Source of the DNA: an uncultured Acidobacteriaceae bacterium
GTDB lineage: Bacteria > Acidobacteriota > Terriglobia > Terriglobales > Acidobacteriaceae
Reading direction: 5' to 3'
Assembly (NCBI GenBank): GCA_963789425.1
Contig: CAWBKM010000006.1
Span: 178,160 to 242,159 of the forward strand
DNA length: 64,000 nucleotides
Positions 52,675 to 59,918 of this stretch are shown here, piece by piece. Within the stretch, counting starts at the first letter, position 1. Every line of letters begins with the position of its first letter. A program made the position numbers and the translations under genes. A model generated the notes under the pieces. That model did not search any database and had not been told where the DNA came from. It saw only the letters and a list, made by a program, of their open reading frames with translations.

Positions 52675-52778
52675 TCGCGCGCCGGCACCTCGGCGGGCCA
52701 CGATTTTCGATGCAAGAAGAGCCCTGGGCTGCGTTCTGCGGTTAGCTGGTGGTCAACTCGCCGAGCGAGGAGGCTCAT

Positions 52779-53999
52779 ATGAAGTCACTGCTTTGCGCAT
52801 TCCTCGTGGTCTTGGGCAGCCACGTGGCTTTTGCCGCGTCTCCGTCCTCTAACGCAGCCGACCAGGCCGAAGCAGTGAACGGCGGCAACGCCTTCGCCGT
52901 CGACCTCTACGCGCAACTTTCGAAGCAGTCGGGCAATCTTTTCTTTTCGCCGGAGAGCATCTCGACCGCATTTGGAATGGCGTATGCCGGCGCGCGCGGC
53001 GAGACAGCAACCGAGATGCAGCACGTATTCCACTTCACACTGCCGCAAGATCGGCTGCACCCTGCGATGGGTGCTCTGCTAGCCGAAATGAACGGTCAGC
53101 ACAACGGCTTTGAGTTGCACGTGGCCGATGCGCTGTGGGCGCAACAGGACGCAAGCTTCCTGCCGGATTACCTGAAGCTGGTTCAAACCGATTACGGCGC
53201 GGGGTTCCACCAGGTTAACTTCAAGGTTTCGCCCGAGAGCGTGCGCGCGACTATCAACGCATGGGTTGAACAGCAGACCAACAACAAAATCAAGGATCTG
53301 ATCGGCCCCGGTGCGCTCAACGCCTCAACACGACTCGTACTCACCAACGCGGTGTACTTCAAAAGCGCATGGCTGGCTCCGTTCGACGCCGAAGCCACGC
53401 AGAAAGAGGAGTTTCACCTCTCCGCCACGCAGTGGGCGATGGCGCCAATGATGAACCGGACCGGCAGCTACAGCTACTACGATGGCGGATCGTTCCAGGC
53501 GCTGGAGTTGCCCTATGCGGGCGACCAGGTCTCGATGGTCGTTCTGCTGCCGAAAAAGATCGACGGCCTTGCGGCGCTGGAGAAATCGTTCGGCTCGGGC
53601 GTGGCGGGCGATTGGATCCGGAAGCTGGAACCGGTGGACAAGGTGGTTCTCACTTTGCCGCGATTCACGATGACGCAACAGTTCGAGTTGAGCAACACTC
53701 TCGGGACCATGGGCATGGCGCAAGCCTTCAGCAATGCGGCGGATTTCTCGGGCATGACCGGCAAGCCCGACTTCGCCATCTCCGCCGCCATTCACAAGGC
53801 CTACATCGACGTGGACGAGCTGGGCACTGAGGCGGCCGCGGCAACGGCGATCACGTTTGTTGCGACGGCGATGCAACGGCGGGTCCCTGAGCCGCCGCCC
53901 ATCGTCTTCCGCGCCGACCATCCCTTCCTGTTCATTCTGCTCGATACACGATCGGGGAGCATGCTCTTTCTCGGGCGCGTCGCCGACCCGACAAAATAG
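52779..53999 (+). CDS. Secreted serpin (serine protease inhibitor)
   Basis: NLFFSPESI, LVLTNAVYFK, LELPY, LPRF, hinge ELGTEAAAAT, FRADHPFLF, LFLGRV.DP; signal peptide. Confidence 0.95.
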   Translation: MKSLLCAFLVVLGSHVAFAASPSSNAADQAEAVNGGNAFAVDLYAQLSKQSGNLFFSPESISTAFGMAYAGARGETATEMQHVFHFTLPQDRLHPAMGALLAEMNGQHNGFELHVADALWAQQDASFLPDYLKLVQTDYGAGFHQVNFKVSPESVRATINAWVEQQTNNKIKDLIGPGALNASTRLVLTNAVYFKSAWLAPFDAEATQKEEFHLSATQWAMAPMMNRTGSYSYYDGGSFQALELPYAGDQVSMVVLLPKKIDGLAALEKSFGSGVAGDWIRKLEPVDKVVLTLPRFTMTQQFELSNTLGTMGMAQAFSNAADFSGMTGKPDFAISAAIHKAYIDVDELGTEAAAATAITFVATAMQRRVPEPPPIVFRADHPFLFILLDTRSGSMLFLGRVADPTK

Positions 54000-54050: not shown

Positions 54051-55907
54051 TTACTTCCCGACGGGAAGCCTGACAAGGCGCGCCTCGAGCAAGGCTTCAA
54101 TCACCTTGAGCGCTTCAACCGCTGATTCAGCGACCGGCTCGTCAACCTGAACAACGGCCAGCGCTTTAACGAGTTCCCCTCCCCGTCGCGTCTCTGCACG
54201 CTCGCGGCCCAGCGCGAAGTTGGCGATGTTGACGCCCTGCTGGCCGAGAATCGTTCCGATGCGGCCGATGACGCCGGGCACGTCGAGGTTGCGGCAGACA
54301 ACGAGGGTTCCCTCAAGCGGAGCCTCGACATCAATGCCGTCGAAAGCGAGCAAGCGCGGATGCTCACCTCGAATGACGGTGGCGCTGGCGCGGCTTTCTC
54401 CCTGCGCGGTGTGCATAACAATCGTAAGGACCGAGGCCGCGCCGCCGCGATGGCTTTCTTGCCTCTCCTCGTGAACGCGTACGCCGCGCTCCGCCGCCAC
54501 GGCTGCTGCATTGATCCGATTCACATTCTCCGAGCCTTGCAGCAGACCCGCGATCGCCGCATTGCGCACCAGCTCGGTTCTAGCTTCGGCGAGCGTGCCG
54601 CCGTAGACAATGTGAATCGAGTCAATGCCTGACTTTCCGCCCCCCTTGCCGACATGCGCCAGAAACGATCCCAGCCGCCCGGCGAGGTCGATGTAGGGAG
54701 CCAGTTGCACATATTCCTCGCGGCTCAATGACGGAACGTTTACGGCGTTCTGCACCACGCCCAGCTTGAGGTAATCGCAAACCTGATGCGCGATCTGGAT
54801 GCCAACGGCTTCCTGAGCCTCAGACGTAGATCCGGCAATGTGCGGAGAGAGCATCACATTGTCGAGGTCGAAGTAGGGCGAATCCCTGGGCGGCTCGACA
54901 GCGAATACGTCGAGCGCCGCTCCCGCCACCTGCCCACCCTTGAGTGCAGCGGCCAGATCGGCATCGCATACCAGCTCGCCGCGCGCGCAATTGACGATGC
55001 GCACGCCCTTCTTCATCATGGCGATGTTTTTTGCGTTGATGATTCCCTGCGTCTGCGGCGTGAGGCCCACGTGCAGCGTGATGTAGTCGGAATGTGCAAA
55101 CAGCTCCTCGACCGGAACGAGAGTGATTCCGTTTTCGCGCGCCAGGGCCGCGGAGACAAAGGGATCGGTTCCCATGATCTCCATGCCGAAGCCGCGCGCG
55201 CGTTTTGCCACTTCAAGGCCGATTTTGCCCAGACCTAAAATGCCGAGCATTTTGCCGCGCAGCTCGGTGCCTTGCAGGTTCTTCTTCTCCCACTTGCCTG
55301 CGTGCATGGTGGCATTGGCTGCAGGCACTTTTCGCGCCAGTGCGATCATCAGGCCGATCGTCAGTTCGGCAACGGCGACCGCGTTGGCGCCGGGCGTGTT
55401 CATGACCACAATGCCGCGCCGCGTGGCGGCCTCGGCGTCGATGTTGTCCACGCCTACGCCGGCCCGGCCAATCACACGGAGCTTTGGTGCGTGCTCCAAC
55501 AATGCGTCGTCAACCTGGACCGCGCTACGAACAACGAGCGCGTCGGCATCGGCCAGCGCAGCAGGCAAACCTTCAGGCAACTGATCGTGCGTTTTGACTT
55601 CCCATCCCGACTCGGCCGCAAAGACTGCCAGAGTGGCCGGAGAAACTTTTTCCGCCAGTACGATCTTCATGGCTGCTCCCTTGTCCGCCGCGGCGGACGC
55701 GCTCATGTACTCATCAAAGCGAATGCCCTGCTGTTCGCAGAGCAGGTCGAACATGCGCAGCACCGCCGCGTGTGGCTTGCCCTCGCCGCGCTCGTATTTG
55801 GTCAGCGAGTTGGGGTGCACTCCCAGCCGCTCCGCCATTTCGTATTGATAGAGATCGAGCTGCTTGCGCGCGATCAGCAGCTTTTCTCCGAAAGTCAGGT
55901 CAGGCAT
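54051..55907 (-). CDS. serA: XRE-type HTH fused in frame to D-3-phosphoglycerate dehydrogenase (ASB+ACT type); internal start at 55670 gives a stand-alone 539-aa SerA
   Basis: Residues 1-67 FGEKLLIARKQLDLYQYEMAERLGVHPNSLTKYERGEGKP; from M80 VRSA, RAGVGVDNID, NTPGAN, GLGKIG, VNCARG, SPHIAGST, ACT VPGVIG...VNIANF. Confidence 0.9.
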   Translation of the reverse strand: MPDLTFGEKLLIARKQLDLYQYEMAERLGVHPNSLTKYERGEGKPHAAVLRMFDLLCEQQGIRFDEYMSASAAADKGAAMKIVLAEKVSPATLAVFAAESGWEVKTHDQLPEGLPAALADADALVVRSAVQVDDALLEHAPKLRVIGRAGVGVDNIDAEAATRRGIVVMNTPGANAVAVAELTIGLMIALARKVPAANATMHAGKWEKKNLQGTELRGKMLGILGLGKIGLEVAKRARGFGMEIMGTDPFVSAALARENGITLVPVEELFAHSDYITLHVGLTPQTQGIINAKNIAMMKKGVRIVNCARGELVCDADLAAALKGGQVAGAALDVFAVEPPRDSPYFDLDNVMLSPHIAGSTSEAQEAVGIQIAHQVCDYLKLGVVQNAVNVPSLSREEYVQLAPYIDLAGRLGSFLAHVGKGGGKSGIDSIHIVYGGTLAEARTELVRNAAIAGLLQGSENVNRINAAAVAAERGVRVHEERQESHRGGAASVLTIVMHTAQGESRASATVIRGEHPRLLAFDGIDVEAPLEGTLVVCRNLDVPGVIGRIGTILGQQGVNIANFALGRERAETRRGGELVKALAVVQVDEPVAESAVEALKVIEALLEARLVRLPVGK

Positions 55908-55914
55908 CGAACGA

Positions 55915-56066
55915 CAGCTCCTAGCCTCTAGCTTCTAGCTCTTAGCTAGATGTCGGTAGAGCCCGCGTTTTCCCATCCTTCATGGCCCGGAAAATCTCGC
56001 GGAATCCAAAATCATTGCGAATCACCGCGAACAAGCTAGCGGCTAGAAGCTAGGAGCTAGCGGCTG
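55915..56066. repeat. Divergent GCTAGRA heptamer arrays forming an inverted repeat across the aminotransferase-serA junction
   Basis: Minus 55946-55915: GCTAAGA GCTAGAA GCTAGAG GCTAGGA GCTG; plus 56035-56066: GCTAGCG GCTAGAA GCTAGGA GCTAGCG GCTG. Confidence 0.8.
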
Positions 56067-57228
56067 CTTTGGCATACACTTCCTGCGCCGCGGCCACGGC
56101 CTGGCCGAACTTTACCGGCAGTCCGAGATTGTCCTTGGCGATATGCTCCATGGCGCCAAGCAGTGCGATGGTGTCGAGATAGTCGAAGAAGCCGAGATGG
56201 GCGACGCGAAAGATCTTGCCCTGCATCTCGCCCTGGCCGTTTGCGGCTACCAGCGCAAATTTCGACTTGAGCGCCTTGACGACAACACCCGAGTCCATGC
56301 CTTCAGGCACTGCAACGGCTGTGGCGGCGGCAGCAGGAGCAGTGGGCGCGAAGAGAGTGAAGCCGAGAGCTACGAGGCCGGCGCGCGTGGCCGCGGCGTT
56401 CACCTGTGCGTTGTCGATCAGAGCGATGCGGCCTTTCTCGAGATCGCCGCCCGCCTGCCCTGCAATGTAATCGAGCGCGGCGCCAAGCGCGGCAACAAGC
56501 GCAACAGCCGGCGTGTAGGCGCTTTCGCCCTTGACCGCGTTCTTGCGCTCTTTGCGCAGGTCGAAGTAGTAGCGCGGATTCTTCGTGGTCTCCATGGCCG
56601 CCCATGCGTGATCGCTCACGCTCAAATAGGCCAGGCCGGGAGGAATCATGACAGCTTTTTGCGAGCCGCCGATGAGCACATCGATGCCCCATCCGTCGAC
56701 ATCGAAGTGCGTGGTGCCGAGGCCAGTGATGCCATCGACGACAAGCAGCGTGTTCGGTGCGACCTCATCGCGGAGTTTCGCGATGGCCTGGATGTCGTGA
56801 CGGACCGCCGTCGAGGTCTCGGTGGCCTGCGTGTAAATGACTTTGTGTTCCGGCTTGAGCGCGGCGCGAACCGCTGCCAGGTCGAAGGTCTGTCCGTAGG
56901 GAGCGGTGACCACTTCGGGCTCGCAGCCGAAGGCCTTCGCAAGGCCTGTCCATCGCTCGCCAAATTTTCCGGCCGTGAGCACCAGCACCTTGTCGCCCGG
57001 CGAGGTCAGGTTCGAAACCGAGGCCTCCATAGCGCCGGTGCCGGAGCAGGAGAGGAGCAGCACATCGTTCTTGGTGCCGACAAACACTTTGAGCTGGGCG
57101 AGCACCTTCTGGAAGAGGGCGCGGAACTCAGCAGTACGGTGATGCATGTCGGCCGCAGCCATGGCGAATTGAGCTGCGGGAAGGAGGGGCGTTGGGCCGG
57201 GAGTATAAAGGCGAGTCTTGCGGATCAT
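56050..57228 (-). CDS. Class V PLP aminotransferase (serine-pyruvate/alanine-glyoxylate type), probable phosphoserine aminotransferase
   Basis: LYTPGPT, HHRT, SGTGAME, GKFGERW, ETST, VDGITG, GGSQKA, FRVAHLG; ATG 57228. Confidence 0.9.
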   Translation of the reverse strand: MIRKTRLYTPGPTPLLPAAQFAMAAADMHHRTAEFRALFQKVLAQLKVFVGTKNDVLLLSCSGTGAMEASVSNLTSPGDKVLVLTAGKFGERWTGLAKAFGCEPEVVTAPYGQTFDLAAVRAALKPEHKVIYTQATETSTAVRHDIQAIAKLRDEVAPNTLLVVDGITGLGTTHFDVDGWGIDVLIGGSQKAVMIPPGLAYLSVSDHAWAAMETTKNPRYYFDLRKERKNAVKGESAYTPAVALVAALGAALDYIAGQAGGDLEKGRIALIDNAQVNAAATRAGLVALGFTLFAPTAPAAAATAVAVPEGMDSGVVVKALKSKFALVAANGQGEMQGKIFRVAHLGFFDYLDTIALLGAMEHIAKDNLGLPVKFGQAVAAAQEVYAKAAASS

Positions 57229-57267
57229 TTTTTCCTCGCTTTGGACTGGCATTTGAAGTGAGCCAGC

Positions 57268-57312
57268 AATCACATAATACACACTTTTGTGATTTTTGTG
57301 GTTATTCTTGTG
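57268..57312. promoter_or_regulatory. Candidate operator upstream of the aminotransferase-serA operon
   Basis: AATCACA-N13-TGTGATT (57268-57294) overlapping minus-strand TATTAT; TTGTG at 57287, 57296 and 57308. Confidence 0.5.
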
Positions 57313-57485
57313 GAAATGCCCCGGTAAGGCCCTGAATGCGGGCAAAATAGCCCCCTTTCACTCTGATCTTCCAAAGTCGGTACAATTCTTCTTTGGTCGC
57401 CTCTCAAAGGCCCGCTTCGAGACCCGGAGCGGCCCCGAAGGAGCTTAAGCGAACCCCATAAAAAGCGAACGCCAGGAGAGAATAG

Positions 57486-57968
57486 ATGACCGACGCAGGC
57501 GAACTCGAAGCCCTTGTCAGCCAACAGATTGTAATTGCCATGAAGGCGCACGATGCCGAGCGCACAGGCACTCTGCGGCTGATCAAGAATGCGCTGAAAA
57601 ACAAGGCAATCGAGAAGCGCGAGCCGCTGACGCAAGCCGAGAGCGAACAGACGCTGGCCACGATGATCAAGCAGCGGCGTGACTCGATTGATCAGTTTGC
57701 CAAGGGCAACCGGCCCGACCTCGTGGCCAAGGAACAGGCCGAGATTGTGGTCATCGAGGAGTTTCTACCAAAGGCGCTGGACGAAGCAGAGCTGGCGAAG
57801 TTGGTGGCGGAGGCGATTGGCGAACTGGTAGCGACGCTCGGTCACAAGCCAACGGTGAAGGAGATGGGCCCGGCGATGAAGGCGGTCCAGGGCAAGCTGC
57901 AGGCGGCGGGTCTGCGCGCCGATGGGCGACTGGTGAGTGAGCTGGTAAAGAAGGAGTTAGCCGGCTAG
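57486..57968 (+). CDS. GatB/YqeY domain protein
   Basis: AMKAHD...LRLIKNAL, IKQRRDSIDQF.KGNRPDL...EIVVIEEFLP, KEMGPAMK, DGRLVSELVK. Confidence 0.92.
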   Translation: MTDAGELEALVSQQIVIAMKAHDAERTGTLRLIKNALKNKAIEKREPLTQAESEQTLATMIKQRRDSIDQFAKGNRPDLVAKEQAEIVVIEEFLPKALDEAELAKLVAEAIGELVATLGHKPTVKEMGPAMKAVQGKLQAAGLRADGRLVSELVKKELAG

Positions 57969-58166
57969 GCGGCCGGGCTCCCTAACGGTGGAAGCGCGCC
58001 GCAAGATGCGCCGTGGCAGCGGGAAGTCGATTCCAAGCGCGAGCGAAACAAATCCCCTCAGATCGGGTTTGCTGTGTAAGCCCTCCCCCTGGGCTGCCGG
58101 GTTCCATTTTGTTTGGATGAATGGGATCCGGCATTTGCAAGGGCTCGGAATGGACTGAGAGGGACC

Positions 58167-59918
58167 ATGACTCCCGAAACGAATCTGCGTTTTTTATCCT
58201 CAGCGTCGGTTTCTCCGCAACTGAACCAGTCACCCAGCGAATCAATTCTCGACGAATCTTCAGCGCGGCATAGAACGAGCGCCTTTTGGCTGATTCCCTG
58301 CGTAGCGCTTGCAATCGCCGCGCTCGCATTGGCGGCGGATGCGACGGCGCAACAGCCGTACCCGGGAGCGCCGTACGATAATTCTCCCCAAGCCGGCCAG
58401 TACGCGCAGCCCTATGCGGACCAGCAGCCGAACGGTGCGCAGGCGCCGTCATATCCTGAGCAGGACCAAGGCGCGGCACCAGCTCAGTCGCTAAGCGCCG
58501 AGGATCTGGAGCAGTTGCTGGCGCCGATCGCGCTTTATCCTGATTCGTTGCTCGCGCAGATTCTTGCTGCGTCCACATATCCGGCGCAAGTGGCCATCGC
58601 CGACCAGTGGGTGCAACAAATGCGCACGTCGGGTTACGGTTCACCCGATCAGATTGCGGCCGGAGCGAACGCGCAGACCAACTGGGACCCGAGCATCAAG
58701 GCACTTACAGCGTTTCCTGACGTGCTCGATCTGATGAACCACGATCTGGAGTGGACCACGAACCTGGGCAATGCGTATTACAACCAGCCGCAGGATGTGA
58801 TGCAGACGGTGCAGGTGCTGCGCGACCGCGCCGAGCAAGCGGGCAATCTGCAATCGACTCCGCAAGAGCAAGTGCAGAACGACCAGGGCTACATCGATCT
58901 TGCTCCTACGGACCCGCAGGTTGTGTACGTGCCTACCTACAATCCGTGGGATGTTTATGGCCCACCTATCGCGCCCTATCCGGGCTTCTCGTTTATCGGC
59001 GCGCTGGGCGACTTTTTCGGCGCCAGTCCGATTCAATACGGGCTCAGCTTCGCTCTCGGAGCTTTCGATCGCATGCCGTTCGGGTGGCTCGCTTGGGGCT
59101 TTGACTGGGTTGGTCACGCACTGATGTTCGACCACTCCGGCTACTCCACGCACAGCAACCAGGTTGCCGATTGGGGCCTGCCGCGCGGAGGACCTCGCGC
59201 CTACGGCCGTGGCGGGTCGTGGGGCAGTCGAGGAAATTCATACCAGGCGGGCGGCGAGCGGCGGGGATACTATCAGCGCGGCAACGACCCGCGCGGCGGA
59301 TGGTTGGACAATTCTGGTGGACGCGGTGGGCGTGGCGGTGCCCAGTCCTACGTCCGTCCTGCGCAGGGATTCCCGGAGCCTGGACGACTCGACCGTTCCC
59401 CGCAGGGGTACTCACGTACGGCGCCACAGCAGAACTACGGCTATCGCCCGCAGACTTATCCTAACCGTGAACCAACGTACATGAATCGCGGATACGAAAC
59501 CAGGCCGCAAAGTTACAGTAGTCTGGGTTACCGTTACGGCTACACTGGCCGGTCAAATTATGGATACACGGGGCCGCAGACTTACACCACGCGACCCAGC
59601 TTCGCAACTTCCAACCCATCCAGATCTTATCGCGCGCCGCAGCCCGACTACTCGCGCGGATCTTCGAGCCGATCGTATCAGAATTACGGCAGTTCGGCGG
59701 CACGGAACGAGCGCCCTGGCGGATTCCATCTCTTCGGCGGTGGACAGCCCAGGTCCTTCAGCAGCCAACGCGCGCCCTCGTACTCCTACAAAGCGCCGAA
59801 GGGTTTTGGCGGGGGGCGTCAGAACTTCGGTGGAGGACATCAGAGTTTCGGTGGCGGGCACATGAGCGCACCCAAGATGAGCCGTTCCAGTGGCGGCGGC
59901 GGGAAGCACCACCGCTGA
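58167..59918 (+). CDS. DUF3300-like exported protein with long G/R/Y/S/Q low-complexity tail
   Basis: LEQLLAPIALYPDSLLAQIL.ASTYP, WDPSIKAL, WTTNLGNAY..QP.DVM..VQ.LR.RA, VYVPTYNP; ATG 58167 after GAGAGGGA. Confidence 0.85.
   Translation: MTPETNLRFLSSASVSPQLNQSPSESILDESSARHRTSAFWLIPCVALAIAALALAADATAQQPYPGAPYDNSPQAGQYAQPYADQQPNGAQAPSYPEQDQGAAPAQSLSAEDLEQLLAPIALYPDSLLAQILAASTYPAQVAIADQWVQQMRTSGYGSPDQIAAGANAQTNWDPSIKALTAFPDVLDLMNHDLEWTTNLGNAYYNQPQDVMQTVQVLRDRAEQAGNLQSTPQEQVQNDQGYIDLAPTDPQVVYVPTYNPWDVYGPPIAPYPGFSFIGALGDFFGASPIQYGLSFALGAFDRMPFGWLAWGFDWVGHALMFDHSGYSTHSNQVADWGLPRGGPRAYGRGGSWGSRGNSYQAGGERRGYYQRGNDPRGGWLDNSGGRGGRGGAQSYVRPAQGFPEPGRLDRSPQGYSRTAPQQNYGYRPQTYPNREPTYMNRGYETRPQSYSSLGYRYGYTGRSNYGYTGPQTYTTRPSFATSNPSRSYRAPQPDYSRGSSSRSYQNYGSSAARNERPGGFHLFGGGQPRSFSSQRAPSYSYKAPKGFGGGRQNFGGGHQSFGGGHMSAPKMSRSSGGGGKHHR

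Follow-up and report, generated by a model that had tools for sequence, protein, structure and literature searches.

A conserved four-element array over the serC-serA promoter of a Terracidiphilus-type acidobacterium, a candidate autoregulatory operator of the fusion protein HTH-SerA

In the 64,000-nucleotide stretch of acidobacterial DNA analyzed here (the window), the gene for the first enzyme of serine biosynthesis, D-3-phosphoglycerate dehydrogenase (PGDH), encodes a protein which begins with a helix-turn-helix (HTH) domain of the XRE type, and the question that this locus raises is where such a domain would bind. The protein, HTH-SerA (618 amino acids; 54051-55907, minus strand; Pfam HTH_3, 2-Hacid_dh, 2-Hacid_dh_C, PGDH_inter and ACT), is encoded behind a serC-like class-V aminotransferase gene (56050-57228, minus strand; Pfam Aminotran_5), which is the first gene of the operon. 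Near-identical proteins in the databases carry the source name Terracidiphilus sp., and the locus, judged by its sequence, belongs to a Terracidiphilus-type acidobacterium of the family Acidobacteriaceae. An initial annotation of this DNA had singled out a palindrome upstream of serC as a candidate autoregulatory site of HTH-SerA, with a Crp/Fnr-like factor as an alternative. We observed that the palindrome is part of a conserved array of four elements which overlaps the core promoter of the operon, and we think it rather probable that HTH-SerA, as a tetrameric enzyme-regulator, represses its own operon through this array.

The palindrome lies exactly where it had been placed: AATCACA (57268-57274) and TGTGATT (57288-57294) are separated by 13 nucleotides and stand 40 nucleotides from the serC ATG at 57228, and the surrounding patch is indeed AT-rich (38% GC at 57260-57320, compared with 59.5% for the genome). 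The exact AATCACA-N13-TGTGATT sequence is unique in the 4.3-Mb genome. A 7+7 inverted repeat with a spacer of 0-20 nucleotides was nevertheless obtained in 29% of dinucleotide shuffles of the 257-nucleotide spacer which separates serC from the divergent gene yqeY (from 57486); shuffling the AT-rich patch gave one in 8% of cases. On these figures the palindrome by itself is no more than chance can supply, and its significance comes from conservation. When serC orthologs were taken from 40 relatives and their upstream regions cut out and aligned, one block was found ungapped in all 23 loci of the same genus; with four loci of other genera, 27 loci encoding HTH-SerA (three genera in all) share it, while the flanks on either side were randomised. 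The invariant cores in these 27 fusion loci are CACA/CACA/GTG/TGT, and the four-element pattern occurred in none of 20,000 shuffles. Conservation, which the initial annotation had named as a check, thus held in the 27 loci first examined and then in all 81 sites read, that is, in every HTH-SerA genome in which the region is assembled.

The whole conserved operator-promoter block occupies 57268-57303 on the minus strand and reads AACCACAAAAATCACAAAAGTGTGTATTATGTGATT on the serC strand, i.e., CACA-N5-CACA-N4-TGTG-N5-TGTG with its flanks; the serC-strand consensus of the 23 same-genus loci is tCACAaAAayCACAaAanTGTGTATTmTGTGATT (ungapped, about 36 nucleotides). The elements, E1 to E4, all given here on the minus strand, fit within about 34-36 bp, and their centres are spaced 9, 8, and 9 bp. 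The outer left element E1 (ACCACA, 57297-57302) doubles as a -35-like hexamer, 17 nucleotides upstream of a TATTAT. The inner left element E2 (AATCACA, 57288-57294; TGTGATT on the plus strand) falls within the promoter spacer, and the inner right element E3 (TGTG, 57280-57283) is directly upstream of the -10-like hexamer TATTAT (57274-57279), which stands between E3 and E4. The last element, E4 (TGTGATT, 57268-57274; AATCACA on the plus strand), comes next after the -10 and covers about -6 to +1. Among the sites of 78 genomes in which the operator was paired with the recognition helix of the fused HTH, CACA was kept in 76 at E1 and in 70 at E2, TGTG was found in 69 at E3 (nGTG in the remainder) and in 76 at E4, and the full TGTGATT of E4 in 60. 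Over the 81 sites, symmetry is best about a centre between E2 and E3, where 18 pairs are 68% complementary, and 65 of the sites have this inner palindrome, CACA-N4-TGTG, in perfect form. The E2/E4 dyad, to which the palindrome first noticed corresponds, ranks second, with a perfect 7+7 repeat at only 21 of the 81 sites. E2/E4 is not the conserved axis, and the real unit is the four-element array.

Two extra TTGTG half-sites had also been pointed out, at 57296-57300 and 57308-57312; both are present, and they correspond to E1 and to E0, a semi-conserved fifth CACA element (TTTCCACA, 57309-57316, minus strand) which is found at a variable distance upstream of E1. Of 25 fusion loci, 18 have the E0 pattern TT[TC][CGT]CAC at most 75 nucleotides upstream of E1, usually at a distance of 16-21 nucleotides; in HTH-less loci the pattern occurs once in 5.4 kb of upstream sequence, which makes for a strong enrichment in the fusion loci. 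Among the relatives E0 takes the form TTTCCACA, TTTGCACA or TTTTCACA, and it is separated from E1 by 39-47 nucleotides in two loci of a sister genus (g11) and in one distant locus of the same genus. An auxiliary half-site, a looping site, and an UP-like element are all conceivable roles for E0.

The array overlaps the only plausible core promoter of the operon. It spans about -37 to +2, with E1 as the -35-like hexamer, E2 and E3 in the spacer, TAnnnT at -10, and E4 over the start region, and thereby has the layout of a dyad-symmetric operator on the operon's own predicted promoter. The -10-like hexamer reads TATTCT in 41 of the 78 genomes, TATTAT in 35, and TAAACT and TAAAAT in one each; since it varies only as TA[T/A][T/A][A/C]T, it is under the constraint expected of a -10 box. 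In many relatives the E1 hexamer is TTCACA, a 5/6 match to TTGACA, giving TTCACA-17-TATTMT, whereas ACCACA in the window is a 3/6 match. The initial annotation had described the minus-strand TATTAT as lacking a good -35, and our consensus scan agrees: no minus-strand sigma-70 promoter was called in the spacer, because ACCACA-17-TATTAT fails the rule of four matches out of six at -35, the yardstick being a sigma-70 consensus which may not be that of the host. The leader from the block to the serC ATG measures 28-126 nucleotides and is unconserved in sequence and length; in one relative the block-to-ATG distance is only 28 nucleotides, and therefore no promoter fits downstream of the block.

Such a layout might also arise if the block were simply an unusually conserved core promoter, or a stretch of bent AT-rich DNA, without any dedicated regulator. 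E1 and TAnnnT do fit a -35/-10 pair with a 17-nucleotide spacer, and the patch is poor in GC, as would be expected in that case. Yet E2, E3, and E4, in the spacer and the discriminator, vary less than the interior of the -10 does, and neither this invariance nor the twofold symmetry is imposed by RNA polymerase; in sister genera, moreover, the ordinary promoters of this locus show no such conservation. We hold this explanation to be quite improbable. An RNA element, in which the inverted repeats form a hairpin in the 5' leader, appears more improbable still. The repeats could pair if transcription started upstream, but most of the block is expected to be untranscribed because the -10 lies inside it, and the leader which follows is unconserved. 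We rejected the hairpin on the ground that its pairing partners differ between genomes (perfect 7+7 repeats in 21 of 81 sites for E2/E4 and in 11 of 81 for E1/E4), the cores being invariant and not co-varying. No Rfam match was obtained at E<=1 in 55800-57600.

A different possibility is that HTH-SerA does bind the array and activates the operon, or both activates and represses it in the manner of the controller proteins of restriction-modification (R-M) systems. In those systems the first dimer recruits RNA polymerase to a promoter with a weak -35 and the second shuts it off, on a 35-bp operator of four half-sites (PMC2504287). The weak -35-like hexamer of the window and the semi-conserved E0 at about -55, a frequent position for activators, would suit this reading, as would the fold of the HTH, whose best matches include controller proteins (see below). 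Yet the array also covers the flank of the -10 and the start region through E3 and E4, which is hard to fit with pure activation, and the good -35 (TTCACA) of many relatives would need no activator. We regard activation as unlikely, and repression by HTH-SerA as the better reading of the same layout.

We further observed that the array is a single site in each genome. A position weight matrix of the block, with 12 bits as the listing threshold, scored 64 bits at the site in genome G000, where the only other score above the threshold was that of its own reverse strand (24.7 bits). Neither the full matrix nor its sub-patterns revealed a second site in G000, the sub-patterns giving only scattered chance matches in GC-rich sequence. 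One product of the sub-pattern scan was a perfect 14-bp palindrome, TCACAATTGTGTGA, at G000:C5:773584, outside the window, which has the inner-pair geometry only. Across the genus, 75 of 81 genomes have exactly one match at up to one mismatch and none has two, and a reversed control pattern gave none. Versions with two mismatches stand at the same place in G583, G589, and G616; in G582 the contig ends inside serC, G003 likewise meets a contig end here and yielded just a short serC fragment, and G022, which has no array match, is 74% complete. In G616 (71% complete), the HTH-serA gene at C5:312529-314354 contains several frameshifts and stops next to its two-mismatch operator, and could be an assembly error or a decaying copy.

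The Crp/Fnr alternative meets its difficulty here. TGTGA and TCACA pentamers are both present in the array, and the classical Crp site is TGTGA-N6-TCACA. The order in the array is TCACA...TGTGA, with N4, N13, or N22 between the partners, and on this account we rejected it as a Crp/Fnr site. A global regulator would, furthermore, have many sites and not one per genome, and the site was not found upstream of serC in the rest of the family sampled. With both the order and the spacing of the half-sites wrong, a Crp/Fnr-family protein is scarcely credible as the binder.

We then asked how the array is distributed relative to the HTH, using a family sample of 151 Acidobacteriaceae genomes from 142 genera. 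SerA aligned from residue 1 in five of the 151 genomes (three genera), and elsewhere from about residue 76-82, i.e., without the HTH. Upstream of serC, these five genomes have the array and the other 146 lack it, which answers the proposal of the initial annotation that the motif be sought for its presence only with the HTH fusion. Four other matches at one mismatch were obtained in the 151 genomes, in GC-rich, unrelated loci, and a control pattern gave two. Neither the closest genera without the HTH, whose SerC is 68-75% identical (63% at one more distant locus), nor seven loci of the sister family have the array. Five of these seven come from unpublished genomes (G029, G035, G036, G038, and G040), as do two of the 146 HTH-less family genomes (G042 and G065); the claims about the motif itself are independent of these. 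Most of the loci examined from HTH-less genera (L036-L049) carry a conserved CCAAAC..CATTATAGAAAG together with a TACAAT about 20-35 nucleotides before the serC ATG, near the ribosome-binding site. The reverse complement of CATTATAGAAAG contains TATAAT; this motif probably serves yqeY, and the CATTATAGAAAG/TACAAT pair is probably the ancestral divergent promoter pair. It appears that the four-part operator replaced this ancestral promoter on the branch which gained the HTH head.

The candidate binder itself has the features of a DNA-binding protein. The XRE HTH corresponds to residues 1-60 (55728-55907, minus strand), and PF01381 (HTH_3) matches residues 13-50 with 31.2 bits against a cut-off of 23 (E 2e-7). 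Its sequence matches in the PDB include MqsA (the best, E 9e-5), PezA, C proteins, P22 c2, and 434. Residues Asn33 and Lys37 align with Asn97 and Arg101 of MqsA, both of which have been reported to be important for DNA binding (PMC5422877). In a predicted model of residues 1-78 (predicted local distance difference test score, pLDDT, 86) helices occupy 6-17, 21-28, 32-39, and 47-60, ahead of a low-confidence tail, and the recognition helix 32-39 carries Asn33, Thr36, and Lys37. The top Foldseek matches of this model are all XRE DNA-binders, namely C.BclI, C.Kpn2I, the P22 c2-operator complex, HipB, the 434 repressor, SinR-DNA, and ImmR, with probability 1.0 and template-modelling (TM) scores of about 0.6-0.7, the E-values being weak for so small a domain. 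By sequence and by predicted model, the HTH of HTH-SerA is thus a canonical XRE domain. It is 80-96% identical across the clade, whereas the linker which joins it to the enzyme (residues 61-79) varies in sequence and length, and no paralog of the fused HTH was found in this genome. A full-length AlphaFold model made from an alignment of 26 sequences reached a mean pLDDT of 65, falling to about 40 in the HTH, and we set it aside without drawing on it for geometry.

We also paired the recognition helix with the operator in the 78 genomes. Genomes with T36A or K37N had weakened operators in eight of eight cases, with a mean of 1.75 deviations from the core, while 20 of the other 70 had weakened operators, with a mean of 0.3 deviations (naive Fisher p 1.3e-4). 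In genomes fetched later, which served as a hold-out, operators were weakened in two of two helix variants and in 13 of 48 others. We take this co-variation as suggestive, a lead and not evidence of binding.

Several observations weigh against HTH-SerA as the repressor that acts at the array. The co-variation is a post hoc observation, first made on six of the eight variant genomes, and a phylogenetically paired test of it was not significant, there being only two secure pairs. The -35 of the window itself (ACCACA) is poor. In the SerC tree all 27 loci with the fusion group together in a single clade (support 99/92). HTH and array were thus each gained once, and their co-occurrence counts as one evolutionary event and not as several independent ones. 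No independent HTH-SerA fusion was found: in a sample of 401 genomes of the phylum the fusion occurs only in this genus, and when residues 1-130 were compared with 1.84 billion representative proteins, all matches which spanned the junction had at least 78% identity and belonged to this clade. The remaining matches to the HTH in that search, at about 33% identity, were to proteins with 3-9 matched stretches each. It follows that the array might be the operator of another clade-specific factor encoded elsewhere, the fused HTH having some other role or none, since the co-occurrence would be matched equally well by any gene acquired along the same branch. Among the alternatives this is the one to which we give most weight, though it too is unlikely. 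There is one site per genome, and it stands directly before the only gene with this HTH; no regulator gene is kept beside the operon, whose neighbours vary; and the helix variants accompany weakened sites. The HTH is, in addition, under strong purifying selection with its DNA-contact positions kept, which would be unexplained if it were idle. We therefore retain HTH-SerA as the favoured binder. The claim of the initial annotation that this is the autoregulatory site of HTH-SerA is thus supported by the conservation of the array, its phyletic match with the fusion, its overlap with the promoter, its singleness in the genome, and the lack of a paralog of the HTH, the binding itself being a prediction.

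The enzyme moiety appears to have been preserved behind the HTH. The part beyond the linker is a complete D-3-phosphoglycerate dehydrogenase of type I, with an intervening and an ACT domain; its best PDB match is SerA1 of M. tuberculosis (3DDN/1YGY), to which residues 82-572 align at E 3e-88. Conserved relative to SerA1 is the catalytic Arg/Glu/His triad, and in the ACT domain the positions matching SerA1 Asp463 and Asn481 are kept while that of Tyr461 is changed to Asn. No PGDH-like gene other than HTH-SerA was found in the genome at E<=1e-40, and as the sole such gene it must therefore still encode a working enzyme. We accordingly predict from sequence that the enzyme moiety is catalytically competent.

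Inside the fused open reading frame we noticed a second possible start, an AAGGGAG Shine-Dalgarno sequence followed by an ATG at Met80 (55668-55682, minus strand). A Shine-Dalgarno-like AAGGGAG or AGGAG stands 5-6 nucleotides before an in-frame internal ATG in 26 of 26 fusion genes checked, and the HTH-less serA genes have a Shine-Dalgarno sequence at the same position before their own start. The internal sequence has been kept at the nucleotide level despite the variable linker around it. Read in this way, the Met80 signal is the ancestral ribosome-binding site and start of SerA, retained after the fusion. Since this start is retained, HTH-less subunits may also be made and mix into the tetramers, which suggests that HTH-SerA would exist as two isoforms.

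Type I PGDH of the SerA1 class is a tetramer and is inhibited by serine. In the mechanism that we propose, HTH-SerA would bind the array via its N-terminal XRE HTH domains and block RNA polymerase, and the first two genes of the serine pathway would in this manner be negatively autoregulated by a 'trigger enzyme'. We infer, then, that HTH-SerA is the binder and that its effect on the promoter is repression. A single tetramer would occupy all four elements, some three turns of DNA, by working as a dimer of dimers whose HTH domains hang on flexible linkers of about 20 residues. The natural effector would be serine, sensed by the ACT domain, and L-serine bound there would presumably tune the occupancy of the operator; the short HTH-less isoform from Met80 would lower the number of HTH domains per tetramer. 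A more specific form of this proposal, which we put forward tentatively and consider possible but doubtful, is that of a four-headed repressor, in which each SerA subunit puts one tethered HTH on one CACA element, serine at the ACT domain re-orients the subunits and so sets occupancy, Met80 subunits tune the number of heads, and E0 allows a second tetramer or a DNA loop. If this were true, feedback inhibition and feedback repression would be achieved by one ligand-binding event.

There are precedents for parts of this proposal. In C.Esp1396I, two XRE dimers occupy a 35-bp autoregulatory operator (PMC2504287). C proteins of this type resemble HTH-SerA in that a small XRE HTH autoregulates through an operator of about 35 bp with four half-sites, filled by two cooperative dimers, and in that the half-sites are of the TGTGA type. 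Unlike theirs, the array lacks a C-box (GACT/AGTC) and has elements spaced 9/8/9 bp in contrast to two palindromes separated by 15 bp; its neighbours are serC, serA, and yqeY and not R-M genes, so that the locus does not qualify as a C-protein system; and the HTH of HTH-SerA is tethered to a large enzyme which would supply the oligomerisation. MqsA (PDB 3FMY/3GN5/3O9X) binds a compact palindrome, ACCT-N3-AGGT (PMC5422877), which lies over its own promoter and is comparable to the inner CACA-N4-TGTG. As an antitoxin, however, MqsA has a toxin partner, and its N-domain binds zinc; it recognizes another half-site, and has neither an enzyme domain nor a four-element array. The enzyme-regulator fusions BirA, NadR, PutA, and RbkR (PMC5397151) are alike in joining a DNA-binding domain to an active metabolic enzyme which controls its own pathway and often its own operon, and in that the ligand state of the enzyme is expected to set DNA binding. 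HTH-SerA differs from these trigger enzymes in being a type I PGDH with an ACT domain and an XRE HTH, not a winged HTH or a ribbon-helix-helix domain, and in its possible HTH-less isoform. M. tuberculosis SerA1 (PDB 1YGY/3DC2/3DDN), for its part, lacks a DNA-binding domain at its N terminus, and no operator is known for it. In the literature searched we found no paper on a bacterial HTH-PGDH fusion, on its operator, or on an XRE regulator of a serine operon. The present analysis adds the four-element architecture at base resolution, its overlap with the promoter, the one site per genome, the presence and absence of the array across the family, the apparent replacement of an ancestral promoter, and the comparison of recognition helix with operator.

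As for the surroundings of the operon, the only consensus promoter match in the serC-yqeY spacer is TTCACT-18-TACAAT on the plus strand (57357-57386), which probably drives yqeY. A full-length bacterial serpin (PF00079, E 2.5e-114; 52749-53999, plus strand) and a DUF3300 protein of 601 amino acids (58113-59918, plus strand) flank the operon. Orthologs of serC precede serA in all relatives examined; the neighbours of the operon differ among the relatives, and yqeY is often absent within 1.5 kb. The spacer between serC and serA (55908-56066, minus strand), from the serC stop to the HTH-serA start, is filled by CTAG-rich inverted heptamer arrays (GCTAGCTCCTAGCTTCTAGC ... GCTAGAAGCTAGAGGCTAGGAGC), of which the distal one provides an AGGAG ahead of the HTH-serA ATG. 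Near-identical copies of GCTAGAAGCTAGCAGCTAGGAGCTG stand before the HTH-serA start in at least eight relatives.

Few enzymes double as transcription factors (BirA, NadR, PutA, and RbkR), and each of them showed how metabolic state is read directly at a promoter. In the present case the enzyme which opens the serine pathway, itself a classic allosteric tetramer, appears to have gained a DNA-binding head and a dedicated four-part operator on the same branch, and this operator is defined to the base, comes with 81 natural variants, and has a single predicted target per genome. Even if HTH-SerA should not be the binder, the array would still be a clean clade-specific regulatory element lacking its factor. 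If it is, the locus would provide a candidate for a compact serine-responsive switch from the Acidobacteria, bacteria which are abundant in soil and peat and whose gene regulation is almost unstudied.

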